DNA of 64,000 bases, taken from positions 12,245 to 76,244 of the forward strand of contig ONGB01000003.1 in NCBI GenBank assembly GCA_900317295.1, in the 5' to 3' direction. The notes beneath the pieces are model-generated. The model had not been told where the DNA came from and searched no databases. It saw nothing but the letters and a program-made list of their open reading frames with translations. The position numbers were made by a program, and so were the translations under genes. Source of the stretch: an uncultured Erysipelotrichaceae bacterium (GTDB lineage: Bacteria; Bacillota_I; Bacilli_A; RFN20; CAG-826). Below, piece after piece: positions 8,336-58,845 of the stretch. Position 1 is the first letter of the stretch, and each line of letters opens with the position of its first letter.

Positions 8336-8920
8336 TTATTTCTTCGTGAAGAGTTGTTCTAGAGAATCCGATGCGATGACGAGACCGTTTTTCTCGATGG
8401 CCGCCATGGCGGAGCAATAGAAGATCGCGGCGAGGATCAGCGCCAACTGATGGGGATCGCCATCGACGAACACGCCCTTTTTCTGCGATTCGATGATCGC
8501 GGATTCATAGGTGAGAATCGGATCGAAGCGGACGCGGATATCCGTATTTGCGCGGTCGATGGTGCGGGCTTCGCGGGCACGGATGACGACTTGGATAATC
8601 AACATCGTGCGCTGATCGGCGGTCTCAATGTCTTTGATTATCTTGCCAAAAGCCTTGGGGAAATTCTCGGCGACGGCCGCTTTGTCTTGGGCGAAAAGGG
8701 CCAGCGGAAGGATGATTTCGTTATACAAAGCGCGGAACACGTCTTCTTTAGAATCAAAATAATGATAGAAAAGACCATGGGAGCATCGGGCTTGGTTGGT
8801 AATGGAGTCGACAGAGACCTCGTCATAGCCAAGGCGGGCAAAGACCTTAATGGCGGCTTCCAAAAGCTTACCGCGGCGGCGGTCTTTGATCGCTTGGTTT
8901 TGCGCGGGGGTGCGAGGCAT
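8336..8920 (-). CDS. TetR/AcrR-family transcriptional regulator
   Basis: Start assigned to MPRTPAQ (GGAG 8 nt upstream) rather than the longer ORF; HTH region VSVDSITNQARCSHGLFYHYFDSKEDV is the TetR signature. Confidence 0.7.
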   Translation of the reverse strand: MPRTPAQNQAIKDRRRGKLLEAAIKVFARLGYDEVSVDSITNQARCSHGLFYHYFDSKEDVFRALYNEIILPLALFAQDKAAVAENFPKAFGKIIKDIETADQRTMLIIQVVIRAREARTIDRANTDIRVRFDPILTYESAIIESQKKGVFVDGDPHQLALILAAIFYCSAMAAIEKNGLVIASDSLEQLFTKK

Positions 8921-20189: not shown

Positions 20190-20639
20190 ATGGAAAACCA
20201 ACAAGGCTCTATTGGAAAACAAATCGGCAGAACCGCGAAGAAGATCCGGCGAGAGCTGGACCTTCTTTATGATGCGAATTTCGGAGAAGAGGGGATCACC
20301 CGTCAGCAAGCCCGCGTCCTGCGTTATCTGCACGAGCATCCTAATGCGACCGCCTTTGATGTCCAACAAGAGTTCTTTTTAGTGAAATCCTCCACCTCAG
20401 ATTTGTTGAACGGATTGGCCAAAAGACGCTTGATTGAGCATAGAAAAGCGGAAAAAGATCGTCGCCGTAAGACGATCGCTTTAACGGAAGCGGGTCGCGA
20501 GTTCGTTTATCGAGTCTCTGTTGTGTTTTCCCGTTTTGAGGAGGCCCTTTCTGTCTCAATAAGTGCGGAAGAAAAAGACGAACTTTCCCGCTTGCTTGAC
20601 AAGGTAGAGGCCGGTTTGGGAGTGAAATACGATGAGTAG
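20190..20639 (+). CDS. MarR-family transcriptional regulator
   Basis: 149 aa; winged-HTH region ITRQQARVLRYLHEH...DRRRKTIALTEAGRE typical of MarR; directly precedes two ABC exporter genes. Confidence 0.8.
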   Translation: MENQQGSIGKQIGRTAKKIRRELDLLYDANFGEEGITRQQARVLRYLHEHPNATAFDVQQEFFLVKSSTSDLLNGLAKRRLIEHRKAEKDRRRKTIALTEAGREFVYRVSVVFSRFEEALSVSISAEEKDELSRLLDKVEAGLGVKYDE

Positions 20640-22482
20640 CAACGACGATATCTTCATTCAGCGGGCCGAAGAACGGGCCGAAAGGGAACTTGCGGAAGCA
20701 AAAAAATCCCGCGCTTTCACGCGTCTATTGAAATACACCAAGGGTTATCGTGGCCAAATCGTCCTCGCGTGGATCTTCTGCGTGTTGGAAGTCGCTTGCG
20801 AGGTCGCCATCCCCACCTTGACTCGCCAGGTCATCAATATCATCGAGGGTGCCGGGGCCGTGCCCGCGGTCCCCATCGATTTTTCCCAGCTTTGGCTTTG
20901 GAGTGGCATTACCATGGGTCTTGCCATCTTCAGCGCCTTCTGCGGCATCGTCGCCGGTCAATTCGCCGCGGTCGCCAGCGCCGGTTACGGCCGTAACCTC
21001 CGTAAGGAGATGTATTACAAAATCCAAGACTATTCCTTCACCAACATCGACAAATTCTCTACCGCTTCCCTGGTCACGAGGATGACGACGGATGTCTCCA
21101 ATGTCCAATTCTCCTTGCAGATGATCCTTAGAACGGTCGTTCGTTCGCCGTTGATGCTCGTGTTTGCTTTGACCATGGCCCTCATCACCAAATGGGAGCT
21201 TGGACTTATCTTCCTCGCCGTCCTTCCCTTCCTCGCGTTTGCCTTGTTTGGCATCGCGATAATCGTCCACCCGACTTTCGTTCGCGTCTTCAATGCTTAT
21301 GACGACCTCAACGCCTCCGTTCAAGAGAACCTCAACGGTATTCGCGTCGTCAAATCCTTCGGTCGCGAAGAGTTCGAGAAAGAGAAGTTCGGGCGCGTGT
21401 CTTATTACATTTACCGCGGGTTCATCCACGCGGAGAAAATCTTGGCTTGGAATAACCCCTCCATGCAGATCGCCATGTATACCGCGACGCTTTTATTAGC
21501 GTATTTCGGGGCTAAATTCATCGTCGCAGGCGGAGGAGCGGGGGATTTCCAAGTGGGCCAATTGACCTCGATGTTCAGCTATTCGGGGCAGATTTTGATG
21601 TCCTTGATGATGCTGTCGATGTCCTTCGTCATGCTGACGATCTCCCGCAACTCCGCGGAGCGTATCTACGCCGTCATGAAAGAAGAACAGGACATCGTTT
21701 CCCCGGAGAACGCCTTGACCGAAGTCCCCGACGGATCGGTCGACTTCAATCACGTCCATTTCAAATATTTCAAAGACAGCGAAAAGGACGTCTTAAACGA
21801 CATCGATTTACATATTCCCAGCGGCTCCACCGTTGGCATTATCGGTGTAACGGGGTCCTCCAAAACGACTTTGATCTCCTTGATCGCCCGTCTTTATGAC
21901 GCGACGGAAGGAAACGTCCAAGTCGGTGGGAACGACGTCAAAGCATATGACCTCCATGTTCTTAGGGACGCGGTCGCCGTGGTGTTGCAGAAGAACACCT
22001 TGTTCACCGGGACGATCAAATCCAATTTGCTTTGGGGCAACGAAAACGCCACCGACGAGGAAATTAAAGAAGCCTGCCATTTGGCGTGCGCCGATGAGTT
22101 CATCGAACGCTTCCCCGAAGGATATGACACCAAAATCGAGGAGGGGGGCACCAATGTTTCCGGCGGTCAGAAGCAACGCCTTTGCATCGCCAGGGCGCTT
22201 CTGAAGAAGCCCAAGATCCTCATTTTGGACGATTCCACCAGCGCGGTGGATACCCACACCGACGCCTTAATCCGCGCCTCTTTCGCGACCAAAATCCCCC
22301 ATGTGACGAAATTCATCGTCGCCCAAAGACTTTTATCGATCAAAGAAAGCGACATCATCCTCATTTTGGAGGATGGCCGCATCATCGCTCAGGGCACCAA
22401 CGACGAATTGATGGAATCCTCGCCGGTTTACCGCGAGCTATATGAAACGCAGCTGGGAGGAGGTGACTTCGATGCCGAGTAA
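20632..22482 (+). CDS. ABC exporter, fused permease/ATP-binding subunit (half-transporter 1)
   Basis: 616 aa; 6-TM N-domain then Walker A GVTGSSKTTL, signature VSGGQKQRLCIARAL, Walker B ILILDDSTSAVD. Confidence 0.85.
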   Translation: MSSNDDIFIQRAEERAERELAEAKKSRAFTRLLKYTKGYRGQIVLAWIFCVLEVACEVAIPTLTRQVINIIEGAGAVPAVPIDFSQLWLWSGITMGLAIFSAFCGIVAGQFAAVASAGYGRNLRKEMYYKIQDYSFTNIDKFSTASLVTRMTTDVSNVQFSLQMILRTVVRSPLMLVFALTMALITKWELGLIFLAVLPFLAFALFGIAIIVHPTFVRVFNAYDDLNASVQENLNGIRVVKSFGREEFEKEKFGRVSYYIYRGFIHAEKILAWNNPSMQIAMYTATLLLAYFGAKFIVAGGGAGDFQVGQLTSMFSYSGQILMSLMMLSMSFVMLTISRNSAERIYAVMKEEQDIVSPENALTEVPDGSVDFNHVHFKYFKDSEKDVLNDIDLHIPSGSTVGIIGVTGSSKTTLISLIARLYDATEGNVQVGGNDVKAYDLHVLRDAVAVVLQKNTLFTGTIKSNLLWGNENATDEEIKEACHLACADEFIERFPEGYDTKIEEGGTNVSGGQKQRLCIARALLKKPKILILDDSTSAVDTHTDALIRASFATKIPHVTKFIVAQRLLSIKESDIILILEDGRIIAQGTNDELMESSPVYRELYETQLGGGDFDAE

Positions 22483-24427
22483 GATGAAACGCGGGGGCGG
22501 AAGAAAACGCCTGACCGGCAAAGAAGCCGCCCGCATCCTAAAGCGTCTTTTGAAGACGATGTTCTCCCTCTATCCGTGGCAGATTCCTTTGGCGTTGATC
22601 GTGATGTTCATCAACTCCGGCGCCGCGGTCATCGGGTCGCTTTTCACCGGCCAAATCGTCATCGGGCATTATCTAAGCCTGGCTTTGGGCCATCAAAGCG
22701 AAATCACGAACCCCTTATTGCTCGCTTTGCTTCCGAAGCAGGACTTCCCCGAGGGGCTGACCGTCGCCATCCTCATCATGGCGGGCATCTACCTCGTGGG
22801 CATCGCCTCCGCCTATTTCTATCAGATCATGACCTCGATCATCGGGCAGGGGACGCAGAAGAAGATTCGCGACGAAGTGTTCATGCACATGGAATCGCTG
22901 CCCCTATCCTATTTTGATTCCCGCACGCACGGGGACATCATGTCCATCTACACCAATGACATCGATACCTTGCGCGAAATGATCAGCCGCGTGATGCCGA
23001 TGCTCATCAACTCGTTGGTCACCATGGCGGTCGTTTTGATCGGCATGCTGCTCTCCAGTTGGGTCCTTGCTTTGGTGGTCTTGGGCTTCGGCCTCATCAT
23101 TTTGCTCATCGTCTTCTACGTCACCTCCCAGTCCGCGAAATTCTTCATCGGGCAGCAGCGCGCCCTTGGGGCAACCGATGGCTATATCGAGGAAATGATC
23201 TCCGGCCAAAAGGTCATCAAGGTGTTCAACCACGAAGAAGCCGCCAAAGAAGGCTTCGACAAGCTTAACGATGAACTTTGCTACTACACGACGAAGGCCC
23301 AACGTTTCTCGATGATTCTCGGCCCCGTGGTCAACAACATGTCCAACCTCCTTTACGTCGTCATCGGCGTGGTAGGGGCCTATGGATACGCGAACGCCTG
23401 GCCGACCATCGGTGTCGGCATCATCGTCTCCTTCTTCGGGATGGGCCGTTCCTTCACGATGCCGATCATGCAGATATCCAACCAAATCAACATGCTGACC
23501 ATGGCTCTTGCCGGGGCCCAGCGCATCTTCGAATTGATGGATGCCACCCCCGAAACCGATGAAGGTTATGTCACCCTCGTCATGGCCAAAGAAGATGAAT
23601 CCGGGCGACCCATACCATCGGATTCCTTCACGGGGAAGTGGGCGTGGAAGCATCCGCATACCGATGGATCCGGCACCGATTACGTGTGGATGAAGGGCAA
23701 GGTCAATCTCTATGATGTCGACTTTGGCTATCGCCCAGATAAGCTCGTCCTCCATGACATCACCCTCTACGCCAAGCCCGGGCAGAAAGTCGCTTTCGTC
23801 GGCCCGACGGGCGCGGGAAAGACCACGGTCACCAACCTCTTGAATCGCTTCTATGACATCGCCGACGGGAAGATCCGCATCGACGACATCAACGTGAACA
23901 AGATCAAGAAACACGATCTGCGACGCACGATGGCCGTCGTTTTGCAGGAGACGAACCTTTTCACCGCGACGGTCAAAGACAATATCCGTTATGGCAACCC
24001 CGAAGCGACTGACGAAGAAGTCATCCAGGCCGCGAAGCTCGCCAACGCGCATAATTTTATTGAGATGCTCCCGCAGGGGTATGACACGATGCTCGATGGG
24101 GCGGGCGCAGGGTTATCGCAAGGCCAACGCCAATTGATTTCCATCGCCAGGGCCGCCTGCACCAACCCGCCGATCTTGATTCTCGACGAGGCCACCTCTT
24201 CCATCGATAGCCGCACCGAAAAGCTGGTGCAGCAGGGGATGGACGCCATCATGAAGGGGCGCACCGTCTTCGTGATCGCCCACCGTCTAAGCACGGTTAA
24301 GAATTCCGACGTCATCATGGTCCTCGAATCCGGAAGGATCATCGAGCGCGGATCCCATGACGAGCTGATCGCCGCGAAGGGCAAATACTATCAGCTCTAT
24401 ACCGGCGGGAAAGAGGATTTGGCCTAA
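22472..24427 (+). CDS. ABC exporter, fused permease/ATP-binding subunit (half-transporter 2)
   Basis: Start at MPSKMKRGG after GGAGG; TMD plus NBD (GPTGAGKTTV, LSQGQRQLISIARA, ILILDEATSSID); about 50-aa insertion between TMD and NBD. Confidence 0.85.
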   Translation: MPSKMKRGGGRKRLTGKEAARILKRLLKTMFSLYPWQIPLALIVMFINSGAAVIGSLFTGQIVIGHYLSLALGHQSEITNPLLLALLPKQDFPEGLTVAILIMAGIYLVGIASAYFYQIMTSIIGQGTQKKIRDEVFMHMESLPLSYFDSRTHGDIMSIYTNDIDTLREMISRVMPMLINSLVTMAVVLIGMLLSSWVLALVVLGFGLIILLIVFYVTSQSAKFFIGQQRALGATDGYIEEMISGQKVIKVFNHEEAAKEGFDKLNDELCYYTTKAQRFSMILGPVVNNMSNLLYVVIGVVGAYGYANAWPTIGVGIIVSFFGMGRSFTMPIMQISNQINMLTMALAGAQRIFELMDATPETDEGYVTLVMAKEDESGRPIPSDSFTGKWAWKHPHTDGSGTDYVWMKGKVNLYDVDFGYRPDKLVLHDITLYAKPGQKVAFVGPTGAGKTTVTNLLNRFYDIADGKIRIDDINVNKIKKHDLRRTMAVVLQETNLFTATVKDNIRYGNPEATDEEVIQAAKLANAHNFIEMLPQGYDTMLDGAGAGLSQGQRQLISIARAACTNPPILILDEATSSIDSRTEKLVQQGMDAIMKGRTVFVIAHRLSTVKNSDVIMVLESGRIIERGSHDELIAAKGKYYQLYTGGKEDLA

Positions 24428-30550: not shown

Positions 30551-30639
30551 GTGCGAACCCGCTGTGTTAGGACGAGACCGATTCCCCTCGTTAATACGAA
30601 GACCGTTCTCCCCGAAGCACGAAGCAACAAACCAATAAG

Positions 30640-30662
30640 ACCGTCCATCGCTGGGCGGTTTT
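30640..30662 (+). terminator. intrinsic terminator of rpsF operon (ACCGTCC-loop-GGGCGGT + T-run); member of repeated terminator family
   Basis: 7-bp stem with one T.G wobble, 6-nt loop, TTTT; preceded by GAAGCAACAAACCAATAAG which recurs at 32030. Confidence 0.75.
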
Positions 30663-30699
30663 CTTATGTTTCTCCTCTTGCTAGTAGTATAATTGGCTT

Positions 30700-30815
30700 G
30701 GGAATGATGTCTCCCATCTAGAAATAGAGAACCGCAATGAAGTGCTGATGACGTCTATGACTTGTTTTGTCATAGAAATCAGCGCTTTTGTTTCTATGGC
30801 AGATGGGAGGTATCG
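30700..30815 (+). promoter_or_regulatory. structured 5' leader of the cation:proton antiporter gene with alternative hairpins and SD sequestration (riboswitch/attenuator-like)
   Basis: TATAAT at 30688-93; TCTCCCATCT (30710-19) pairs with AGATGGGAGG (30800-09), which contains the SD 7 nt before the ATG; inside, GTCATAGA can pair either with upstream TCTATGAC or downstream TTTCTATGGC (mutually exclusive hairpins). Confidence 0.45.
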
Positions 30816-32006
30816 ATGAATATATTTCTGTCTTTGTTTATTATTTTTGGTGGTGGGATCCTCGGTGGGTTTTTATTTGAGAAGATCAAACTCCCCAAAC
30901 TGGTGTGGTATATCATTCTCGGGATTCTTATTGGACCATCTTTGTTCAATATCGTTGATGATACGTTGCTGTCGGTTTCGTCTCATCTAAGGCAAATCGC
31001 TTTGGTCATCATATTGACCAGGTCAGGCCTATCTTTGAACATTAAGAACCTAAAGAAAATAGGGCGACCTGCGATATTGATGTGCTTTTTACCCGCTTGT
31101 TTTGAAATTGCGGGCATCACGATATTTGGCCCAATGCTCCTCGGGATATCCTATTTCGAAGCCTTGCTTCTTGGCTCGGTCTTGGCGGCCGTTTCGCCGG
31201 CGGTAGTGGTTCCGAGAATGATTCGCCTAATGGAAGAAGGATATGGAAAAGAACACTGCGTGCCCGAACTTGTGATGGCGGGGGCATCTTGTGACGACAT
31301 CTTTGTAATCGTCCTTTTCTATTCGTTCAAGAATCTGGTCGCAACGTCCGCCTTTGACGCTTGGAGCGTCGGGCAAATCCCCATTTCGATCGTCTCCGGT
31401 GTCATTTTGGGCATCGGAGTAGGCTTCTTGATGGTTTTAGCCATTCGATACATGAAACTAAATAGAATCGTCCATGTCATTTTGATGCTCGGTCTCTCCT
31501 TCGGGATGCTCGCCCTCGAGAATGCCTTGAAACCGTATTTCAGCGTTTCGTCTCTATTAGCCATCATCGTCATGGCATTTGTGGTGGGCGTCTTTAAAAA
31601 AGAGGAAGCGAAGGAGATGCAGAAATCCTATAACGGCTTATGGCAAGGTTTTGAAATCCTATTGTTCGCTCTCGTTGGCATTGCGGTCGATGTTCGTTAC
31701 GCTTTTTCAAAAGAAGGGGCAATCATCGTTGGGCTGGTTTTCATTGCGTTGGTATTTAGAAGTTTAGGCGTGTTTTGCAGCATAATTGCAACGAAATTCA
31801 CTTGGAAAGAAAAACTATATATCGTCATTTCTTATCTCCCTAAGGCGACCGTTCAAGCATCGATTGGGGCGATTGCTTTGTCCGAAGGCCTTGCTTGCGG
31901 CACGTTGGTGCTGACCGCTGCGGTGGTGGCAATATTGATAACCGCTCCATTGGGTGCGATATTGATGGATAACCTGAAAAACAAATTGCTTAAGAGGGAG
32001 GCGTAG
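30816..32006 (+). CDS. cation:proton antiporter (Na+/H+ exchanger-fold, CPA family)
   Basis: Start at MNIFLSLF after GGGAGG; about 396 aa, 11-13 TM helices, conserved TM-crossover discontinuous helices with Asp residues, typical of PF00999-type exchangers. Confidence 0.7.
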   Translation: MNIFLSLFIIFGGGILGGFLFEKIKLPKLVWYIILGILIGPSLFNIVDDTLLSVSSHLRQIALVIILTRSGLSLNIKNLKKIGRPAILMCFLPACFEIAGITIFGPMLLGISYFEALLLGSVLAAVSPAVVVPRMIRLMEEGYGKEHCVPELVMAGASCDDIFVIVLFYSFKNLVATSAFDAWSVGQIPISIVSGVILGIGVGFLMVLAIRYMKLNRIVHVILMLGLSFGMLALENALKPYFSVSSLLAIIVMAFVVGVFKKEEAKEMQKSYNGLWQGFEILLFALVGIAVDVRYAFSKEGAIIVGLVFIALVFRSLGVFCSIIATKFTWKEKLYIVISYLPKATVQASIGAIALSEGLACGTLVLTAAVVAILITAPLGAILMDNLKNKLLKREA

Positions 32007-32049
32007 TTCCTTCGACTCTTTTATAGGCAAGAAGCAACAAATCAACAGG

Positions 32050-32073
32050 ACCGTCCCTCGTGGGCGGTTTTTT
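32050..32073 (+). terminator. intrinsic terminator of antiporter gene (ACCGTCC-CTCGT-GGGCGGT + T6), repeat-family member
   Basis: Same stem as 30640 and 32326; preceded by AAGAAGCAACAAATCAACAGG (near-identical to the 30620 flank). Confidence 0.75.
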
Positions 32074-32325
32074 CATGCTCGTCCGTCCCTCGTCCCGGAT
32101 CTACTTAGAACCATCGACGTCGAAGCGACCTTATATATTTCATATATAACTCATTCTAACTAACCCCGGTCGGTCCACGTCACACGATCGTCCTTGTGGC
32201 TGGCAAATTGTTAGGCGTCGTCCGAATCGAGTCCCACGGGTCGAATATGGGCTTCGTCGGAGAGAGCGGAGTTTGTTCTTTTTCGGAGAATTGGCGTCGT
32301 CGTCGAACACCCGCTACAAAAACAA

Positions 32326-32350
32326 ACCGTCCCTCGTGGGCGGTTTTCTT
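32326..32350. terminator. bidirectional terminator (ACCGTCC-CTCGT-GGGCGGT, A-run upstream and T-run downstream) abutting the stop of the minus-strand ABC-2 permease
   Basis: Identical stem-loop to 32050; AAAAACAAA 5' and TTTT 3'. Confidence 0.7.
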
Positions 32351-33141
32351 TATGATCCGGTCGATTCGTATCGCCTGGCGCACAAGGTCCAAATAAGCAC
32401 GGACAACGCGAAGAACGCCACCGAAGCCCCGAAGATGATCAAGCTGAGCCAATAGGGGTTATAGCTTCCGTAGAGCAATGTGTCGATCGGTAAGGAGATG
32501 AACAACCCGAACGGCAGGATGAAAATCAAAATGAAGCGGATGGCCGCCGGGAAGATGGCGATCGGGTATTTCGCGTAGATGGTGAAGTTGTAGACGATCT
32601 GAAGAAGCGGGCCGCTGCGCTTGAAGATGAACGCCAATGACGAAATGGCGATTTTGAAGGAAGTGATGATCATCGCGCCGAAGATCGCCCCCACGACCAA
32701 AACGAAGATCGCCCCAAAGGAAACAGATACTTGAAGGTTTACCCCGCAGATGACGATCATCGTGATGCCGACGATGACTTCGCCGAACCCGTCGGGCTGG
32801 AACGTCTCCGCGAACATCTGGAAAATGACGGGGATCGGCCGCAGAAAGTGGCGGTCCATGTCGCCTAACTGGACGCGGCGATAGGCCACCAGCCAGAACT
32901 CGTCGCTGAAGAGGTGGTCCAAGGCGATGGGGATCATCGAGAAGCCATAAAAGAAACCGACTTCCGCAGGGGTGTACCCCTTCAACGAGGGAATCGTCTG
33001 CAAAATGAAGAAAATGGAGGCCAAAGAGCACGCGTTGGAAATCAAGAAGGACAGAATGGAAATGATCGTGTCCTTTTTGTATTCCAGGCGGGACAGCATG
33101 CTGCGCTTGATGCAGGTGAAATAGAGCTTGACGTACCGCAT
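32350..33141 (-). CDS. ABC-2 family transporter permease
   Basis: 263 aa, 6 TM; same operon as next permease and ATPase. Confidence 0.55.
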   Translation of the reverse strand: MRYVKLYFTCIKRSMLSRLEYKKDTIISILSFLISNACSLASIFFILQTIPSLKGYTPAEVGFFYGFSMIPIALDHLFSDEFWLVAYRRVQLGDMDRHFLRPIPVIFQMFAETFQPDGFGEVIVGITMIVICGVNLQVSVSFGAIFVLVVGAIFGAMIITSFKIAISSLAFIFKRSGPLLQIVYNFTIYAKYPIAIFPAAIRFILIFILPFGLFISLPIDTLLYGSYNPYWLSLIIFGASVAFFALSVLIWTLCARRYESTGS

Positions 33142-33142
33142 G

Positions 33143-34003
33143 CTATCCTCCCTGAACCGTCACGATTTTTATTGCGTGGTTGAAAAGCAATTTGGCCAAC
33201 AGCTCCAATAAAATGAGCCAGCCAAAGGAAATCAAAAGAACTTTCCCACATTCGAGGTAGTCGTACTTCATCATCAGAATCAGGACGGGGTTTTGGCTCA
33301 TCCCGGCGAAGGGCATATAGGAAACGATTTCCCGGAAGATGTTCGGGAAGAAGGCGATGGGGAGCAACGTGCCCGACAGAAAGGAGACCACGGTCGTCTT
33401 CAAGGCGTTGAGCCCCCATGCGGCGGAGGTGTAGAAGCAGAGGATCCCGAAGATGTAGGAGATGGCCCCGTTGAGCATGCAGGCGAGGACGCTGGCAACC
33501 AAGAACAGACCGAGGTGGGCGATGAAATCCCATACGGAAGGCACGGGCAAATAACCGATGCCGATAAGCACGCCCAATGCGCACGTGTATAAGGCAATCC
33601 CAAACACGACGAACATCATAAAGAACGCCCCGAGGGTCGATGCGATGAACTTGCCGCGATAGGAAATCGGCTTGATCAGGAAGTTTCCGATCGTCCCTTG
33701 GCGGACGTCATGATTGATGGACCACAGGGTATCGTCGTTGAACGTCACGAACCCGAATATCGTCGTCAGCACGACGTAGACGATCATCTCTTTGTACGTG
33801 AATCCGTTGATGGCGGCGTCGATCCCGCCTTCGCTGCTTTGATAGACGGCGAGCCAAAGGAAAACCAAGCACGCCACCTCGAAGACGGTGACGATCGCCC
33901 ACGTGATGATGTTGAAGCGGTACGCCATCATGTCGATGGCCGCCGCGCGGGCGAACGGCTTATATTTTCTTAGCCATTGCATGTTCTTCCTCTTGCTGTT
34001 CAA
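33143..34003 (-). CDS. ABC-2 family transporter permease
   Basis: 286 aa, 6 TM, paralogous architecture to the downstream permease; 1-nt gap between the two. Confidence 0.55.
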   Translation of the reverse strand: MNSKRKNMQWLRKYKPFARAAAIDMMAYRFNIITWAIVTVFEVACLVFLWLAVYQSSEGGIDAAINGFTYKEMIVYVVLTTIFGFVTFNDDTLWSINHDVRQGTIGNFLIKPISYRGKFIASTLGAFFMMFVVFGIALYTCALGVLIGIGYLPVPSVWDFIAHLGLFLVASVLACMLNGAISYIFGILCFYTSAAWGLNALKTTVVSFLSGTLLPIAFFPNIFREIVSYMPFAGMSQNPVLILMMKYDYLECGKVLLISFGWLILLELLAKLLFNHAIKIVTVQGG

Positions 34004-34970
34004 GAATCTGCTTTACGACATCTTCGATGGAAATATCCGCGATTTTCATATCTAAAGCGCGGTATTGGGAGAAGGCGTATTGAACGACGTGCTCAAGCAC
34101 GACCTTGTCCGCGTCGAAGGATAGCAAAACCTTGTCTTGGTCCATGGTCATCGTGACATCGTCAGAGAATGGTTTGACCGCGTTCGGGTCGAGATTCGGC
34201 GGAATGGTCAGCGTCAAAGTTTTGATGTTGCCGAAACGACGTTTGATATCACCTAACGGTCCGTCATAGATGATTTTGCCCCTCTCGATCATGATGATGC
34301 GGGAACAGAGGTTTTCGATGTCGGCCATATCGTGGGTGGTGAGGACGACGGTGGTGTGATATTTCGCATTAAGGGCATGGATCGCCGTGCGGATCTTGTC
34401 TTTGACAAGGACATCCATGCCGATGGTAGGTTCATCAAGGAAGAGGATCTTCGGGTTATGAAGCATCGAGGCGGCCAGGTCCGCGCGCATCCTTTGCCCC
34501 AAAGATAGGGTGCGGACGGGCTGGGTCATGAACTCATCGATGCCCAGGACGGAGGATAAGAAAGCGATCCGCTCCTCATAATCCGCATCGCTGATTTGAT
34601 AGATTTCCTTGAGGACTTTGAAGGACTCGACCAACGGAATGTCCCACCAAAGCTGGGTCTTCTGCCCGAAGACGACGCCGATGTCCTTGGCGACGACCCG
34701 GCGCTTCAGGTAAGGCTCTAAACCATCGATTAAGACCTTTCCGGAAGTGGGGGTGAGGATGCCGCACATCATCTTGATGGTCGTGGATTTGCCGGCGCCG
34801 TTGGAGCCGATATACCCCACGATTTCACCCTCGGATATGTCAAAGGACACATCATCGACGGCGCGGATTTCCGTGTATTTGCGCGAAAATAAAGTGGCGA
34901 ACATGCCGATAAGGCCTTTGCCCCGGATCGGCTTACGGAAAATTTTGACGAGGTTTTGAACTTGAATCAT
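33960..34970 (-). CDS. ABC transporter ATP-binding protein
   Basis: 336 aa; Walker A GSNGAGKST, signature LSLGQRMR, Walker B ILFLDEPTIGMD, plus C-terminal extension; 44-nt overlap with the permease gene. Confidence 0.8.
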   Translation of the reverse strand: MIQVQNLVKIFRKPIRGKGLIGMFATLFSRKYTEIRAVDDVSFDISEGEIVGYIGSNGAGKSTTIKMMCGILTPTSGKVLIDGLEPYLKRRVVAKDIGVVFGQKTQLWWDIPLVESFKVLKEIYQISDADYEERIAFLSSVLGIDEFMTQPVRTLSLGQRMRADLAASMLHNPKILFLDEPTIGMDVLVKDKIRTAIHALNAKYHTTVVLTTHDMADIENLCSRIIMIERGKIIYDGPLGDIKRRFGNIKTLTLTIPPNLDPNAVKPFSDDVTMTMDQDKVLLSFDADKVVLEHVVQYAFSQYRALDMKIADISIEDVVKQILEQQEEEHAMAKKI

Positions 34971-35051
34971 GGTTTGGAGAACTCGAATCGCTTTATTTTA
35001 GCGAAATAAAGAAACGAGATAAACGGACGGCCTATTTGTTATCATTTTCCC

Positions 35052-35770: not shown

Positions 35771-36439
35771 TTATTCGACAACAGGCAATTCTACCGATGT
35801 GGCGCCATAGTCGCTGACCGCGGTTTTCGAACTCCAGTGCACATCGGGACTATATGTGGCGTAGTAGTCATAGGATTGATAGAGGATCCGTCCGTTTTCG
35901 AATTTGGCTCTGATATTGGAATAAACGTAATTGCCAACCGTTTTGGTTTCGGCGATCAACTCGTAACGGCGCGTGCTGCCGTTATATTTCATTTCGTTGA
36001 AAGCGACCCAATCGGCGATGGTCGGGAAAACCATATCATCGGGCAGGGAGTCGTTTTCATATGTCTGTTTTACCATCGCGCCCTCTTCTTCGTAATAGAC
36101 GTCATATGTCCAAGTGCGATCCGTCTCGCTATAGGTGCCTTCATGGAATTGGAGATAACCCACCCCATACGAAGTCTCCATACAGACTTTTCCGTTATCG
36201 TATTTGGTGCGATAGGTATACGTTTTTTCCCCATTGTTTTCGGTCCATTCCGCGGTGAAATTCAGCGTTGCCATTTGGGCGACGAACGTCCTATAAGAGA
36301 ATTGATTATATTGTTCTTCCGTCACCACGTGATTGACCTTGGGCGCGGCCGACTTGCTGCTCGCGGTTTCGCCGCTTTGGCCGCAACCCGCCATCAAAGC
36401 GCCCGCGGCCGTCAGAAGAATAAAGTGACTCAATTTCAT
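35771..36439 (-). CDS. lipoprotein of unknown function
   Basis: Start at MKLSHFILLTAAGALMAGCG (AAGAGGAAGCC RBS); signal peptide with LMAGC lipobox; rest is Tyr/Thr-rich and probably beta-rich. Confidence 0.55.
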   Translation of the reverse strand: MKLSHFILLTAAGALMAGCGQSGETASSKSAAPKVNHVVTEEQYNQFSYRTFVAQMATLNFTAEWTENNGEKTYTYRTKYDNGKVCMETSYGVGYLQFHEGTYSETDRTWTYDVYYEEEGAMVKQTYENDSLPDDMVFPTIADWVAFNEMKYNGSTRRYELIAETKTVGNYVYSNIRAKFENGRILYQSYDYYATYSPDVHWSSKTAVSDYGATSVELPVVE

Positions 36440-36562
36440 AATGGCTTCCTCTTTAATCATTATATCCCATGCGTGCATTCTTAATTCCTTGCTTTATTGT
36501 TGGCTCACCGATGGCCCCTCTTTTCTACACGTCCCGAAATGCGTGGTAAAATATCGATTAAC

Positions 36563-37363
36563 ATGAGTTTTTACGATTGGTTTTTCCTTGAAAAAGACCG
36601 CCCGGCGGCCGGGCTTTTTTCTTGGTCCCATCTATTAAGCGTCACCATCATCCTTGCCGGGCTGATGGTTTGGGCGTATTTCCTTGGAAAGAAGCATAAA
36701 GATAATCCGAAGGGCCAACGAATCGTCTTGATCGTCGCTTCCGGCGCTCTGATCGCTCTCTACATCATGAAAATGGCCTTCCTTTTGGCGACCACCGATG
36801 ACGTCGTTAATACGTGGCGCGAAAACATCCCCCTCTTCTTTTGCGATGCCATCATCTTCGTCGTTCCGATTGCGGCTTTTGCAAAAGGCAGGGCGCAGGA
36901 TATCTGTTTCGATTTCATCGCGATATGCGGTTTCTTGATGGGATTCATGGGAAATTATTTCGCGGGGAACGTCTATAGCTACCACCCCGCGTTTAGCTAT
37001 CTGTCTTTGATCAGCGCCTTCAATCACGGCATCGCGGCATTTGCGGCGATGTTCGTCTTCGTGGCGAGGCTGAACAAGATGGAGAAACGGAATATCCCTT
37101 TCGTCATTGGCATCCTTTTCGTGTTGATGACCATCGCTTTGATCGTCGACTACATCACCGGGGAGAATTACGTGTTCTTCCTCGGCGGAAGCGGCACCCC
37201 ATTTGGCCTGATTTTTGACTGGGTGCAGCATAACCTCATCATCTACCAAATCATCATCTACGTCATGCAATGCGGGTATATCGGCCTCTTCTACGTGGTC
37301 TATTACCCCATCAAGAAATGGATGGATGGCAGAAAGAAAGTAGAAGCGCCCAATGAGCAGTGA
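36563..37363 (+). CDS. integral membrane protein, uncharacterized (about 7 TM)
   Basis: Start at MSFYDWFF; 266 aa, hydrophobic throughout; overlaps the next gene start by 11 nt. Confidence 0.45.
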   Translation: MSFYDWFFLEKDRPAAGLFSWSHLLSVTIILAGLMVWAYFLGKKHKDNPKGQRIVLIVASGALIALYIMKMAFLLATTDDVVNTWRENIPLFFCDAIIFVVPIAAFAKGRAQDICFDFIAICGFLMGFMGNYFAGNVYSYHPAFSYLSLISAFNHGIAAFAAMFVFVARLNKMEKRNIPFVIGILFVLMTIALIVDYITGENYVFFLGGSGTPFGLIFDWVQHNLIIYQIIIYVMQCGYIGLFYVVYYPIKKWMDGRKKVEAPNEQ

Positions 37364-38477
37364 CCTAAACCAAACGAGCCTAGAAAAGCGCAGGTATTAC
37401 CCGGTTTTGGATTTGGTGCGGTTCCTCGCCGCGCTTTTGATCGTCGGGGTGCACATCTTCCCCGAAGGATCCACCACGGAAGGAATCGGATTAGATCGTT
37501 CCGTCCCCACGTTGCTTGGATTGTCATTTATGAATGCCTGCCTGCGCATCGCCGTCCCCGCGTTCTTCCTCATCAGCGGTTTCCTTCTTTTCAAGAAGAT
37601 CGGGGATGATCCAGAACATAAATGGCAACACATTGGGGCTTTCTGTCTCAGAATCTTGTTCCTCCACATCTTTTGGTATGCGGTGGGTTTGCCGTTAACC
37701 ATCAGGGATATCACCGGCTTTGTCTCCCAAAGTGACACGAATGGGCTGATCAGGTACATCGTGATCACTTTGTGGAAAGGGGCCCCCAGGGGGTATTGGT
37801 TCCTGGTGTCCTTGGTCCTGTCGGTGGTGATCACCGCTTCCTGCCGCTCCAAGAAATCCATGACCGTCTTAGCCGTCATCGCGGGCACGCTATATGTTTA
37901 TGGCTGCCTCAACAGCGCGTATTTTGGGATTTTTCTCTTAAATAATGATCCCGTTTCGAAGGCGTTTTACCAAGTCGGGGAATACCTTGAATTAAGTTTC
38001 TGCCCGTTGCAGGCCCTCTTATTCGTCGTCCTTGGGCGGTTCTTCGCGGAACACGGGTCTTTTAAGATCAAGGGCAACGCCGTAATCCTTCCCGCGGTCT
38101 TTCTCCTGATGATGGGGGAATTGTTCTTAACCATGTATGGGAACCTTTACGTCTATCCTGACGCGTTCTTTTCTCTGCCGATCTTTGCTTTTTTCCTGAT
38201 GAATCTATTGCTTGGCATCAACGTGGAAAATGAAAAGTTCACCGAAGTGGCGAAAAAGCTGAAACGGGTCGGAAGCTTCTCCTATCTATTCCATTTCCAG
38301 TTCTTCTGTTACATGCATTGGATTTTAGACGCCACGGGGAACAACATCTTCCGCGATCAATATGGCTGGCTGTTCATCCCTTATTTGATCTGCGTGGCTT
38401 TGTGCTTCGGGCTGCAAACCCTCTTCGAATACCTATCGAAAAATAAATACCTGGGATTCCTCCGATATTCTTATTGA
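37353..38477 (+). CDS. acyltransferase family 3 (OafA/YrhL-like) membrane protein
   Basis: 374 aa, 10 TM; N-terminal YPVLDLVRFLAALLIVGVHI matches the acyltransferase-3 start. Confidence 0.65.
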   Translation: MSSDLNQTSLEKRRYYPVLDLVRFLAALLIVGVHIFPEGSTTEGIGLDRSVPTLLGLSFMNACLRIAVPAFFLISGFLLFKKIGDDPEHKWQHIGAFCLRILFLHIFWYAVGLPLTIRDITGFVSQSDTNGLIRYIVITLWKGAPRGYWFLVSLVLSVVITASCRSKKSMTVLAVIAGTLYVYGCLNSAYFGIFLLNNDPVSKAFYQVGEYLELSFCPLQALLFVVLGRFFAEHGSFKIKGNAVILPAVFLLMMGELFLTMYGNLYVYPDAFFSLPIFAFFLMNLLLGINVENEKFTEVAKKLKRVGSFSYLFHFQFFCYMHWILDATGNNIFRDQYGWLFIPYLICVALCFGLQTLFEYLSKNKYLGFLRYSY

Positions 38478-38544
38478 ATTTACTTTGTGACGCTTTTGTG
38501 ACCGGAAACCTGACACCATAGAAACAACAAAAGAGGTCGCCATT

Positions 38545-38807
38545 ATGAGAAAAGATCTACTGAAAGGCCTGAGCGAAGAACAAATCCAAAAAGCCAGCCG
38601 TTGCGAAAATCCCGAAGAGCTTTGGCCCTCGCCAAAAAGGAAGGCGTCGAACTGACGACGGATGAGTAACTCGAAGCCGTCAGCGGCGGATGCGGCTGGT
38701 TTACCACGTTGCCTTCTTGCCCCGAATGCGGCAACAAATGGGTCTACGAAATCGACGAAGGAAAACGGTGGAAGTGCTCCTCCTGCGGCAAGAAGTGGCA
38801 TAAATAG
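38545..38807 (+). pseudogene. disrupted RiPP-type precursor peptide gene (Nif11-like leader with GG cleavage motif + 38-aa 6-Cys core); -1 frameshift near 38620 and in-frame TAA at 38667-38669
   Basis: AAGAGG RBS 8 nt before ATG; frame 1 gives MRKDLLKGLSEEQIQKASRCENPEEL then derails (stop 38653). Shifting -1 continues LALAKKEGVELTTDE*LEAVSGG-CGWFTTLPSCPECGNKWVYEIDEGKRWKCSSCGKKWHK*, i.e. a canonical ...ELLALAKKEGVEL..DEELEAVSGG leader interrupted by TAA where GAA is expected; followed by a family terminator at 38825-38856. Confidence 0.6.
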
Positions 38808-38824
38808 AATTGCAAACAAGAATA

Positions 38825-38856
38825 AATCCACCCGTTGCTGGGCGGATTTTTCTTTT
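38825..38856. terminator. bidirectional intrinsic terminator (AATCCACCC-GTTGCT-GGGCGGATT + T-run), repeat-family variant
   Basis: 9-bp stem with one mismatch and T5; convergent with the AKR gene ending at 38859. Confidence 0.65.
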
Positions 38857-38858
38857 CC

Positions 38859-39641
38859 TCAAAGCGTCTTTACGCGGTCGAGTTTTTCTTTGTCTTCTTG
38901 GGTCAATTCGAAGTCGAACTCGAAGTTGTCCTTCATATGGTCTTTGCTGCGGCTTCTAGGAAGCGGGACCGTCCCTAACATATCCGCGTATTTGATGCAG
39001 ACCTTCGCTGGGGAAACGTTGTATTTCTTAGCGATTTCCCCAACGGTTTCGTTTCCCAATAGCCTGCCGACGCCCAAGGGAGAATAGGCTTCGACGAGGA
39101 TGTTCTTCTCGTGGCAGTAATCGATGACTTCCTGCGGAACGTGGCCGACGTGTATGCGAATTTGGTTGGCGAAGATTGGCTCCGAAGAATGCTCTTCGAT
39201 GTTCTTGATGTCCTTGACGGTGAAATTAGAGACCCCGATGTTTTTGATTCTGCCTTCCTTCTTCGCCTCGGTCAGGGCGCGCCAGACTTCGAGGTTGCCT
39301 TTGTGGAAGCGGGGGCCCGGGAGCAGCATCAGCGCCCAAGGCTTCGGCGCGTGGATGAGCATGAGGTCTAGATAATCCACTCCAAGGCGTTCTAAGGATT
39401 CATCGATTGCCTTCTTGGCGTCCTTGTAGTTTTTGATCTCTGCGGGGATCTTCGAGGTGATCCAGATCTCTTCCCGCTTCAGGCCGAGTTCTTTGATGGC
39501 CTCGCCGATCTCGCTTTCGTTGCGGTAGGCGATCGCGGTGTCGAAGTGGCGGTACCCGATTTCGTAGCCTTCGATGAAGACGCGCTTCGCATCTTCCTTC
39601 GCGATTTGCCAGAAGCCGAGGCCGGGATTGGTGATTTCCAT
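38859..39641 (-). CDS. aldo/keto reductase
   Basis: 260 aa; GYRHFDTAIAYRNE and the rest of the AKR catalytic tetrad context, NADPH-binding C-terminus. Confidence 0.8.
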   Translation of the reverse strand: MEITNPGLGFWQIAKEDAKRVFIEGYEIGYRHFDTAIAYRNESEIGEAIKELGLKREEIWITSKIPAEIKNYKDAKKAIDESLERLGVDYLDLMLIHAPKPWALMLLPGPRFHKGNLEVWRALTEAKKEGRIKNIGVSNFTVKDIKNIEEHSSEPIFANQIRIHVGHVPQEVIDYCHEKNILVEAYSPLGVGRLLGNETVGEIAKKYNVSPAKVCIKYADMLGTVPLPRSRSKDHMKDNFEFDFELTQEDKEKLDRVKTL

Positions 39642-43928: not shown

Positions 43929-44606
43929 ATGCGAAATCAGCCATATTTTGATCCTAAACCGCGCCGCTACCCCTTCCCGGAATTGACCGATCAGCATTAT
44001 CTGGTCGTCAAGAAAGACCGGGGCATCGTTTTCGATGAGAAGTATCCCTATATCGATCATTCGAAAACTTTTTTGCGCAAGCAGTGGTGGACCCGCTTGC
44101 TGCTCCGCACCATCGTTTTCCCGATGACCAAGGTGAAGCTTAGCCTCCGCATCAAAGGGAAGGAAAACCTCAAGAAATACAAAGACGTCATCCAAAACGG
44201 CGTCGTCGGGGTCTCCAACCACGTCAACATGTGGGACTACCTCGCCATCCTTTCCGCGGTGAAGCCCAAACACCCCGGGCTGATCGCCTGGGCGAAGAAC
44301 GTCAATGGCGAAAGCGGGACTCTGGTTCGCCTCGTCGGCGGCATCCCCATCCCCGAGAAGAATTTCAAGGCGACCAAAGCCTTCATGGAGACCGTCGTCG
44401 ACCATGTCAAAAACGGCGGGTTCCTGCAGATCTACGCCGAAGGCAGCATGTGGGAGTATTATGCCCCCATCCGCCCCTTCAAAAGCGGGGCGGCCTATTT
44501 CTCCGTCAAAAGCGGAAAGCCGATACTCCCGATGGCCTTTTCCTATAGGAAATCCACTTGGATCAGGCGGCTATTCGGCCCGCTTGCCTCCCTCAGCTCA
44601 CGATGA
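43929..44606 (+). CDS. 1-acyl-sn-glycerol-3-phosphate acyltransferase-family (PlsC-like) protein
   Basis: 225 aa; HX4D motif in VSNHVNMWD, downstream EGS and P motifs (IYAEGSMWEYYAPIRPFKSGAAY). Confidence 0.65.
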   Translation: MRNQPYFDPKPRRYPFPELTDQHYLVVKKDRGIVFDEKYPYIDHSKTFLRKQWWTRLLLRTIVFPMTKVKLSLRIKGKENLKKYKDVIQNGVVGVSNHVNMWDYLAILSAVKPKHPGLIAWAKNVNGESGTLVRLVGGIPIPEKNFKATKAFMETVVDHVKNGGFLQIYAEGSMWEYYAPIRPFKSGAAYFSVKSGKPILPMAFSYRKSTWIRRLFGPLASLSSR

Positions 44607-53410: not shown

Positions 53411-53820
53411 TGATAACGTGGGGACGTACTGGTTTTGATTCGGAAGGTCGGTCATCGACTGCAGTGGTCTGGTAGACCCTAAGACCGAAAAACAATAACT
53501 GACAACTCTGTCAAACCCTGGATGGTGCGTAACAACGCCGTCCTCGCTCGCGCCTAATTAGAGCACCCCTCGATGGGTTCCCGCCAAGCGGGACGAGCAC
53601 GTCCGCCCCTCATTTCTCGCCTATTGAGGGAGCGGGCGCAACACCAAGGCGATAAGCGCGTAGCGTTGGCTAGCGCGTAACGTCGAAAACCTTACCAGCC
53701 ATGGGTCATGCGCTTTGGGGCGTATCTTCAACCATGACCCGAGACTTGAAACGCCATAAACTGTAGGCGTCGATGGTTAGTCTTCCGAAGACCGGAGTTC
53801 GACTCTCCGCGTCTCCACCA
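53411..53820 (+). ncRNA. ssrA: transfer-messenger RNA (tmRNA)
   Basis: 5' GGGGACG pairs with 3' CGUCUCCACCA (acceptor stem with G3.U), T-arm GGAGUUCGACUCUCC, ends in CCA; starts and ends like B. subtilis tmRNA; tag ORF GAC(53492)...GCC-TAA(53546-48) preceded by AAUAACU as in B. subtilis; followed by terminator 53834-53866. Confidence 0.93.
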
Positions 53821-58149: not shown

Positions 58150-58845
58150 ATGGATTTCTCTGGCTGGGAAAAACTGTCTCTCGTCGACTTCGACGACAAC
58201 CTCACGACCACTCTTTTCATGGCGGGCTGCCCATTCCGCTGCCCCTTTTGCCATAACGGGGACTTGGTCCTTCATCCGGAAAACGCCCCGAAGATCCCGT
58301 GGGAAGAGATCCTAGACTATCTAAAAAAGCGTAGAGGCATGTTAGACGCCGTCTGCGTCTCCGGTGGCGAGCCGACCTTGATGCCCGACCTCAAAGAGAA
58401 AATCCGCGAGATCAAAGAGCTTGGCTATATCGTCAAATTGGATTCCAATGGCTGGCGGCCCGATTTATTGAAAGGGCTTATCGAAGAGAAGCTCGTCGAC
58501 CACATCGCGATGGATATCAAGAACTCCAAAGAGAAATATTCCGCGACCGCGGGGGTGGAAGTCGATATGAGCCAAATCACCCAATCCGTGGACCTATTGA
58601 TGCATTCGGGGATCAGCTATGAATTCCGCACGACGATCATTGAGGAATTCCATGACGAAGACGACATCCGCCGCATCGGGGAATGGATTAAGGGGGCAAA
58701 GATGTATCGGTTGCAAAGATTCATCGACGGGGAAACCTGCATCTACCGTGGCCTTCATCCCATTAGCTTAGATAAGGCCGAAGGATTCATAGAGATTCTC
58801 AAACCCTATATCGAAAATGTCGATTTAAGGGGATACGACAAATAA
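58150..58845 (+). CDS. nrdG: anaerobic ribonucleoside-triphosphate reductase activating protein (radical SAM)
   Basis: 231 aa; CPFRCPFCHN CX3CX2C cluster motif in NrdG context; convergent with trxB-nrdD. Confidence 0.8.
   Translation: MDFSGWEKLSLVDFDDNLTTTLFMAGCPFRCPFCHNGDLVLHPENAPKIPWEEILDYLKKRRGMLDAVCVSGGEPTLMPDLKEKIREIKELGYIVKLDSNGWRPDLLKGLIEEKLVDHIAMDIKNSKEKYSATAGVEVDMSQITQSVDLLMHSGISYEFRTTIIEEFHDEDDIRRIGEWIKGAKMYRLQRFIDGETCIYRGLHPISLDKAEGFIEILKPYIENVDLRGYDK

Follow-up and report, generated by a model that had tools for sequence, protein, structure and literature searches.

The stretch of DNA considered here, referred to below as the window, covers 64,000 nucleotides (nt) of contig ONGB01000003.1 from an uncultured Erysipelotrichaceae bacterium. 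At 38545-38807 on its forward strand lies a disrupted gene for a small peptide, made of a leader ending in a double glycine (GG) and a cysteine-rich core. With a probability of about 0.78, this gene is a lineage-specific pseudogene of a single-copy orphan, which belongs to a large family of leader peptides from rumen Firmicutes whose intact copies would be exported by the mechanism proposed below. The lesions, the intact orthologues, the architecture of the family and the neighbourhoods of its relatives can be read directly from the data. The gene and its parts are the following (aa, amino acids).

38545..38807, + strand: disrupted peptide gene as a whole, probable pseudogene of an 86-aa precursor (48-aa leader and 38-aa core)
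38533..38536, + strand: Shine-Dalgarno-like GAGG, 8 nt before the ATG at 38545, kept in the orthologous contigs
38545..38622, + strand: first part of the leader, MRKDLLKGLSEEQIQKASRCENPEEL, including C20, from the frame 1 translation; leader profile match at E=1e-12
38619..38621, + strand: frameshift site, TTT where 12/12 orthologues have TTTT; 1-nt deletion, alignment column at 38620
38654..38656, + strand: in-frame 3-nt duplication, GAC, giving an extra Thr (VELTTDE vs VELTDEQ), private to the window
38667..38669, + strand: premature stop, TAA for CAA (Gln), hitting the conserved EQL-x-AVSGG motif; the Gln is invariant in the family alignment
38670..38690, + strand: end of the leader, LEAVSGG, the double-glycine cleavage motif, from the frame 3 translation
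38691..38804, + strand: core of 38 aa, CGWFTTLPSCPECGNKWVYEIDEGKRWKCSSCGKKWHK, with an N-terminal Cys and two zinc knuckles, CPECG and CSSCG
38824..38849, both strands: bidirectional intrinsic-terminator hairpin, GC-rich and with a T-run, separating the peptide gene from the convergent aldo-keto reductase gene

Translation of the three forward frames reproduces the leader and Cys-rich core that an earlier note had read at this place. Frame 1 gives MRKDLLKGLSEEQIQKASRCENPEEL from the ATG at 38545 and then runs off into WPSPKRKASN and a stop; frame 3 gives ALAKKEGVELTTDE, the TAA at 38667-38669, LEAVSGG and CGWFTTLPSCPECGNKWVYEIDEGKRWKCSSCGKKWHK, closed by a TAG at 38805-38807. The first 26 residues are 100% identical to those of the orthologue on contig L095. 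The core holds five Cys and not the six announced by the earlier note, the sixth being C20 of the leader, which is the family-invariant Cys (nearly invariant when all copies are counted).

A protein search with the repaired window peptide led to 26 homologues, one of which is intact and 95% identical (P0001, 86 aa), so that the resemblance to a leader-core peptide is not due to chance. The 90% cluster of P0001 comprises seven further members, including P0027, which was found on 23 contigs (NCBI, IMG, ENA, Logan). The intact 86-aa gene occupies the syntenic site in 12 independent rumen metagenome contigs (L005, L006, L095-L104), always in the order TMEM164-family gene, Acyl_transf_3 gene, peptide gene and convergent aldo-keto reductase gene. 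The DNA that codes for the core was also sought as an exact pattern in JGI metagenome contigs, which gave no match and added no strain.

The lesions were defined by DNA alignment of the window with these 12 contigs, which reveals five changes private to the window in the peptide gene: a synonymous change at 38610, the shortening of the T4 run to T3 at ~38620, the duplication of GAC at 38654-38656, a C to T change at 38667 that turns the Gln codon into TAA, and a G to A change at 38734 (Ser to Asn), the same natural variant being present in P0032. The frameshift and the stop proposed by the earlier note are thus both present in the sequence, with two corrections: the run goes from TTTT to TTT and not from TTT to TT, and the TAA replaces CAA (Gln) and not GAA (Glu). 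The GAC duplication had been overlooked, so that the lesions are three and not two; at this place, the window has 'TT' and the orthologues 'T'. Apart from this, the gene is ~98% identical to its intact orthologues. It is intact even in L103, although the upstream acyltransferase gene of this contig is of the same haplotype as in the window. Between the 12 intact orthologues, the differences amount to 4 synonymous sites, a single conservative K/R replacement and a stop codon that is either TAA or TAG; the synonymous sites and the K/R replacement point to purifying selection where the gene is intact.

Near-invariant 86-aa orthologues at the syntenic site in at least 12 independent assemblies, with lesions in the window alone, agree with the recent pseudogene proposed by the earlier note. 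As far as comparison of sequences can tell, the region 38545-38807 is more likely a real, recent and lineage-specific pseudogene than an artefact, because it combines three lesions of three kinds in an otherwise clean coding region. It could also be argued that the gene is intact in the organism and that the lesions are errors of sequencing or assembly. The 1-nt deletion sits in a T4 homopolymer; another assembly (P0028) has lost a different nucleotide 5 nt away and the copy in L017 is also frameshifted, and such neighbouring frameshifts could mean an error-prone or slippage-prone spot. These three points weigh against a pseudogene, and the ~98% identity to intact orthologues and an odd 77-nt deletion in the PlsC-like gene of the window would also fit errors. 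However, homopolymer error does not account for a pattern that joins a deletion to a tandem duplication of 3 nt and a transition from C to T. Furthermore, among the 19 other genes that the window shares with L095 over ~25 kb, 18 align full-length with zero gaps, the exception being the PlsC-like acyltransferase with its deletion at ~44596. The gaps with conspecific contigs other than this deletion and the two in the peptide gene fall outside the gap-free coding alignments. An assembly error, which the earlier note had already judged the less likely explanation, therefore appears quite improbable.

The 77-nt deletion, seen by comparison with L095-L097, shortens the PlsC-like gene (PF01553; open reading frame (ORF) 43929-44606, + strand) from 279 aa to a 225-aa ORF and has a 4-nt microhomology, CTCA, at its junction; it is the second gene-disrupting lesion in the window's lineage or assembly. 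As for the frameshifts in relatives, P0028 (JGI/IMG, 67 aa) is an orthologue in which CCC has become CC, the L017 copy (8484-8751) is frameshifted directly after ...EELLAL, and a copy in L057 (454-882) is split in two fragments. The stretch of short homopolymers that codes for ELLALAKKEG appears to be prone to indels, biological or technical, since P0028 and L017 carry independent frameshifts within a few nt. Local hypermutation of the peptide gene was also considered, the five private changes being accompanied by none in the 350 flanking nt. It was dropped because the divergence of the gene, ~2-2.7%, is no higher than the background, the DNA of the window sharing only 93-98% identity with that of each relative sampled.

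It is barely credible that the cell bypasses the lesions, either by a programmed -1 frameshift at CUU-U together with read-through of the stop, or by producing a leaderless ribbon from the TTG at 38709. A -1 slip after CTT would restore exactly ...EELLALAKK..., and the ORF that starts at this internal TTG encodes both knuckles. However, an X XXY YYZ slippery heptamer is absent, TAA is an efficient stop that stands here without recoding context, there is no Shine-Dalgarno sequence ahead of 38709, and two independent recoding events would be needed within a 260-nt gene whose simple in-frame version exists in 12/12 orthologues.

The ribosome-binding site and the terminator, described as intact by the earlier note, are both present, but the terminator is bidirectional and common to the convergent aldo-keto reductase gene. 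Its survival tells little about the peptide gene because the reductase gene needs a terminator too. In the window, the hairpin folds at -20.6 kcal/mol on the - strand and, with one A.C mismatch, at -15.2 kcal/mol on the + strand; the terminator of an orthologue without this mismatch reaches -20.6 kcal/mol on the + strand. The 67-nt intergenic region 5' of the peptide gene contains a direct repeat with an 11-nt period (38483-38502, CTTTGTGAC / TTTTGTGAC), which overlaps a weak -35-like TTGTGA followed 17 nt further on by TAGAAA. The orthologous contigs keep most of this repeat, which may be a promoter or a regulator site; a promoter scan of the region yielded nothing at its threshold. Long antisense ORFs (96-156 aa) lie over the peptide genes, at 38433-38831 on the - strand in the window and in 23 loci as 'cluster 1' ORFs. 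Their apparent conservation ('PPLTA..CSS' is the antisense of AVSGG) follows from that of the leader coding sequence on the other strand, and gene-calling programs could be misled by them. The 'cluster 1' ORFs (~100 aa), which recur beside family members, were accordingly rejected as real genes.

The window peptide shows a long leader ending in Gly-Gly and then a variable core, LEAVSGG being followed directly by a Cys. Among 27 family members, 20 match the Nif11 domain PF07862 at E<=0.01 (best E 8.8e-6), and 19 match TIGR03798 at the same threshold (best E 2.6e-5); several touch models of GG-bacteriocin leaders, with nine weakly matching TIGR03949. PF03047 (ComC) reaches E=0.2 and 12 bits for a cut-off of 20.4, which is no membership, and among the NCBIfam hits of the window peptide the SCIFF model does not appear, even at E<=10. 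Judged from these profiles, the leader is a distant relative of Nif11 and not a curated member. The Nif11/GG-type leader announced by the earlier note thus holds for its GG end and for the Nif11 matches of the family, and fails for the window peptide itself, which stays below both curated cut-offs (scores below).

The zinc-ribbon-like nature of the core, also suggested by the earlier note, is supported. The repaired window peptide scores 27.7 bits with the zinc ribbon PF12760 (gathering cut-off 25.4) and carries the knuckles CPEC and CSSC. The AlphaFold2 model of P0001 has three leader helices; residues 47-53, around the GG, are disordered, and the core is rich in beta-strands, with a predicted local distance difference test (pLDDT) score of 81-83. 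With Foldseek, this core superposes on the zinc ribbons of L37ae, PhnA and TFS at 1.1-1.5 A over ~30 residues.

The family is large. In a profile search of 1.84 billion cluster representatives at 50% identity, 3,090 reach E<=1e-3, of which 465 also reach E<=1e-10. At least 144 loci, confirmed by tblastn, came from a scan in which each species was represented by one genome. Among the matches listed, most carry labels of rumen metagenome-assembled genomes (MAGs), namely Erysipelotrichaceae, Bacilli, Bacillales, and Lachnospiraceae or Pseudobutyrivibrio. In the fetched loci, a hidden Markov model (HMM) of the leader has 271 matches, up to 13 per 16-kb locus; three copies or more are present in 38/94 loci and tandem arrays reach 13 copies. 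Members are named in databases 'transposase-like protein' or 'ribosomal protein L37AE/L43A'. The architecture was counted on 236 unique full-length copies. The leader ends in GG in 234 of them and contains its Cys in 233, and a Cys follows the GG within four residues in 232. The core has at least two CxxC motifs, as in zinc ribbons, in 228 copies and a CPxC in 206. Leaders share a median pairwise identity of 71% and cores of 29%, that is to say a conserved leader and a hypervariable core. The zinc-ribbon part of the family profile also matches eight separate stretches of P0144 (550 aa), apparently a relative of the cores with several ribbons in tandem.

Some relatives are encoded beside candidate tailoring and export genes. 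A radical S-adenosylmethionine (rSAM)/SPASM protein of 464-468 aa occurs in five loci (L004, L023, L045, L049 and L091) and has no NCBIfam equivalog, its best score being ~100 bits for cut-offs of at least 400. Beside it are encoded a 130-aa HlyD-N-like protein, similar to the N-terminal part of the NHLP secretion protein, and two ATP-binding cassette (ABC) transporters, one scoring 834 bits with TIGR03796 and including a Peptidase_C39 domain, the other scoring 666 bits with TIGR03797. The peptide directly 5' of the rSAM gene usually belongs to a short-core subtype, with a core of 13-18 aa and one Cys directly after the GG. For example, GGCGSDNHKHRKIES and GGACSNTSTKERPKFES are of this kind, with the leader variant ACDDV.DL.QLAKDEG; the short-core and rSAM/SPASM pairs lie at L004 10001-11818, L023 6502-8100, L091 9639-11400 and L049 1974-3960. 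Genes for a HipA-like protein (~399 aa) and for STAS/SpoIIE partner switching recur near these loci. Zinc-ribbon members are also found inside such clusters: one lies directly upstream of the rSAM gene in L045, another between the rSAM and HlyD-N-like genes in L049, and L004 includes a 64-aa member with a truncated leader.

A family member is preceded, 25-70 nt upstream and on the same strand, by a gene for an AbiEii-like nucleotidyltransferase (NTase, 236 aa) in ~14 loci (for instance L001 9265-10291, L012 2841-3901, L027, L044, L048, L054, L073, L077 and L072 187-6092). L072 shows the order peptide, NTase, HlyD-N-like, ABC, ABC, the NTase being in the place of the rSAM gene. Instead of acting as a toxin, this NTase may serve to tailor the peptides; compared with the PDB, its sequence gives only a weak match to a 'nucleotidyltransferase-like protein' (5uvd, E=0.015).

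Only a minority of copies belong to clusters that combine an rSAM or NTase gene with exporter genes, so that orphan copies are normal. MAG RGIG9687, for example, has one rSAM/exporter cluster (L049) and, among the matches listed, peptide genes on three other contigs (L022, L025 and L041; ~9 genes by our own ORF calls). The earlier note was right in seeing no maturase or exporter next to the disrupted gene, and this holds for the whole 64-kb window. It had taken the gene for the remnant of a locus making a peptide synthesized on ribosomes and modified after translation (RiPP), which is not borne out: the gene is a lone orphan even where it is intact, as are most family members. An orphan copy is the rule in this family and no sign of a decayed locus; as the lack of an adjacent maturase is normal here, it provides no evidence of decay.

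From this architecture and these neighbourhoods, we infer that intact copies are exported, cleaved after the GG, bound to zinc or modified, and active as bacteriocins or signals. The intact product (P0027, P0001) would consist of a ~48-aa leader with three helices, distantly Nif11-like, bearing the invariant Cys and the EQLxAVSGG end, then of a flexible GG junction, followed at once by the conserved Cys and by a 38-aa zinc-ribbon domain with four Cys. The leader would be recognized by an ABC exporter of the NHLP/Nif11 type that bears a C39 peptidase domain and whose gene lies at another place in the genome. This exporter would cleave the peptide after GG48 and secrete a 38-aa mini-domain that starts with a Cys. 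Before export, an rSAM/SPASM enzyme or an AbiEii-like NTase that recognizes the leader may modify the peptide. The four-Cys ribbon could either bind zinc or undergo cross-linking of its thiols by the rSAM enzyme. In the lineage of the window, the T4 to T3 deletion, the GAC duplication and the CAA to TAA change would have destroyed the frame, leaving at most a 36-aa leader fragment, with the ribosome-binding site and the shared terminator still in place.

Several observations weigh against this proposal. The repaired window peptide reaches only 17.0-17.8 bits with TIGR03798 (cut-off 32.3) and 20.7 bits with PF07862 (cut-off 23.8). The whole structure model is of moderate confidence (mean pLDDT 67), and Foldseek against the PDB found no match at E<=1e-3 but only local superpositions on zinc ribbons. 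The zinc-ribbon type may not be a substrate of the rSAM enzyme, because the peptides encoded 5' of rSAM genes are mostly short-core and single-Cys. The zinc-ribbon copies are for the most part distant from any exporter and often located in islands rich in toxin-antitoxin genes. The 64-kb window contains no maturase or peptide exporter, and none is tied to the window's own species.

Some of these observations would be expected if the family consisted of cytoplasmic zinc-ribbon proteins with an N-terminal helical domain, which are not exported and of which the window holds a dead copy. Such proteins could be partners or regulators of the AbiEii-like NTase, or components of toxin-antitoxin or defence islands. 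The core has indeed the canonical fold of a zinc ribbon with four Cys, which is typically found in intracellular modules that bind nucleic acids or proteins. Moreover, the ~14 loci with an AbiEii-like gene closely upstream on the same strand come from different MAGs, Phd/YefM, ParE-GNAT and HipA-like genes recur near family members, and most copies have no exporter within 8 kb. However, the GG falls exactly at the boundary between the conserved and the hypervariable part in 234/236 copies, where the model places a disordered linker, and a conserved N-terminus, a hypervariable C-terminus and tandem arrays are together the signature of leader-core precursors. Zinc-ribbon members are present inside exporter clusters (L004, L045, L049 and L072), the NTase gene of L072 is operon-like with the HlyD-N-like and ABC genes, and the matches to Nif11 and GG-bacteriocin leaders are weak but recurrent. 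A purely cytoplasmic role therefore seems unlikely and exported leader peptides are preferred.

By its type of leader, its GG motif and the export genes of NHLP type, the family stands next to the known Nif11-like precursors. In Nif11-type prochlorosin systems, one machinery serves many dispersed precursor genes. Like these precursors (TIGR03798/PF07862, e.g., prochlorosin ProcA), the family combines a helical leader of ~48 aa ending in GG with hypervariable cores, has many paralogues per genome that are mostly far from a single biosynthetic and export cluster, and includes relatives that adjoin the C39-peptidase ABC1, ABC2 (834 and 666 bits with NHLP models) and HlyD-N-like genes. However, the window peptide scores under the curated cut-offs, and in the family the leader bears an invariant Cys while another, conserved Cys comes right after the GG. 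The cores look like folded zinc ribbons and not like linear cores rich in Ser, Thr and Cys. The associated enzymes are an unclassified rSAM/SPASM protein or an AbiEii-like NTase instead of LanM or a cyclodehydratase, and the hosts are rumen Bacilli, Erysipelotrichaceae and Lachnospiraceae instead of cyanobacteria.

With the class II GG bacteriocins and pheromones (ComC/BlpC, PF03047; lactobin A/cerein 7B, TIGR03949), the family shares an E-x-L-x-x-V/I-x-GG-like motif and a presumed processing by a C39-peptidase ABC exporter. It differs from them by a leader of ~48 aa with three helices, instead of 15-30 aa, and by cores that are zinc ribbons and not amphipathic or hydrophobic peptides. In the same way, the Cys-rich rSAM RiPPs of Clostridia (SCIFF/ranthipeptides and sactipeptides) resemble it by their Cys-rich cores of ~40 aa, their Firmicute hosts and the rSAM/SPASM gene adjacent in some loci. 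However, the SCIFF model does not match, the Cys of the family are arranged as CPxCG...CxxCG knuckles, and the peptides directly 5' of the rSAM gene are mostly of the short single-Cys subtype. Stand-alone zinc ribbons (L37ae/L43, the N-terminal part of PhnA/YjdM, and that of IS1595 transposases, PF12760) also have two CxxC knuckles 10-25 residues apart, and both the PF12760 score, above the gathering cut-off, and the superposition of the model (1.1-1.5 A, ~30 residues) underline this likeness. In contrast to them, the ribbon of the family comes as a fusion with a GG leader, its sequence between the knuckles is hypervariable and it has no transposase or ribosomal context.

No description of a family joining a Nif11 leader to a zinc ribbon, with rSAM or AbiEii genes, was found in the searchable literature. 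Curated profile libraries yielded no family that combines a zinc-ribbon core, an invariant leader Cys, an unclassified rSAM enzyme and an AbiEii-like NTase. These relatives might form an undescribed class of mini-proteins from rumen Firmicutes, with Nif11-like GG leaders and zinc-ribbon cores, diversification in tandem arrays of up to 13 copies, NHLP-type cleavage and export, and tailoring either by a new rSAM/SPASM enzyme at the conserved Cys that adjoins the cleavage site or by an NTase of the AbiEii fold taken over for peptide modification, a proposal that we put forward tentatively.

The immediate neighbours of the disrupted gene in the window are the following.

36563..37363, + strand: TMEM164-family membrane protein, syntenic
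37353..38477, + strand: membrane acyltransferase (Acyl_transf_3), upstream neighbour, syntenic in all conspecific contigs
38859..39641, - strand: aldo-keto reductase, convergent and intact, sharing the terminator with the peptide gene

Genes of the TMEM164 family adjoin peptide genes in L001, L003, L037, L057 and L091. More generally, in other MAGs, Acyl_transf_3 genes and TMEM164-family genes are repeatedly found close to members of the peptide family, which could reflect function or inherited synteny. On the window, the leader HMM detects only the two fragments of the disrupted gene. The only Radical_SAM match among the scanned ORFs is a 231-aa protein (58150-58845) without SPASM. Two other candidates were rejected: the ABC pair at 20632-24427 resembles MsbA and, when aligned with the NHLP ABC1 model, leaves out the N-terminal peptidase region, which does not fit a peptide exporter, and the 235-aa gene at 35771-36478 (- strand), tried as a diverged AbiEii-like NTase, gave E=4.8 with BLASTP and no Pfam match. 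A transfer-messenger RNA gene (RF00023, 105 bits) lies at 53420-53820.

The region 30563-35021 looks like a horizontally transferred cassette, composed of a fluoride riboswitch (RF01734, 30691-30764), a Na+/H+ exchanger gene (30762-32006), two ABC-2 permease genes and an ABC ATPase gene. Its counterparts are found in differently labelled rumen Bacilli MAGs (L056 8513-13508, L061 6149-8566 and L062 4770-7605), with a DNA identity of 96-97.5% over the riboswitch and exchanger part and ~81% over the ABC genes. The housekeeping proteins of the MAG loci sharing the cassette are ~53-62% identical, and the protein of the adjacent ssb gene ~53%. The cassette is absent from the conspecific contigs L095 and L096. 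In L056, L061 and L062, it lies downstream of rpsF-ssb-rpsR and within 1-2 kb of a family peptide gene. A segment of ~280 nt of the window (32031-32309) is repeated in L056.

Considered alone, the disrupted gene is a routine recent pseudogene, and its value is that of a pointer to a larger family, that is to say to thousands of small genes of rumen bacteria that are unannotated or mis-annotated. Two candidate tailoring enzymes of this family, the rSAM/SPASM protein and the AbiEii-like NTase, fit no described RiPP class. If the tentative class described above is true, it would provide the first folded zinc-ribbon domain used as the core of a RiPP or bacteriocin and the first AbiEii-like NTase involved in peptide maturation. 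If exported, the products of these genes would form a large and fast-diversifying repertoire of secreted mini-proteins in a competitive gut ecosystem, where they could act as bacteriocins, signals or metal-binding peptides.

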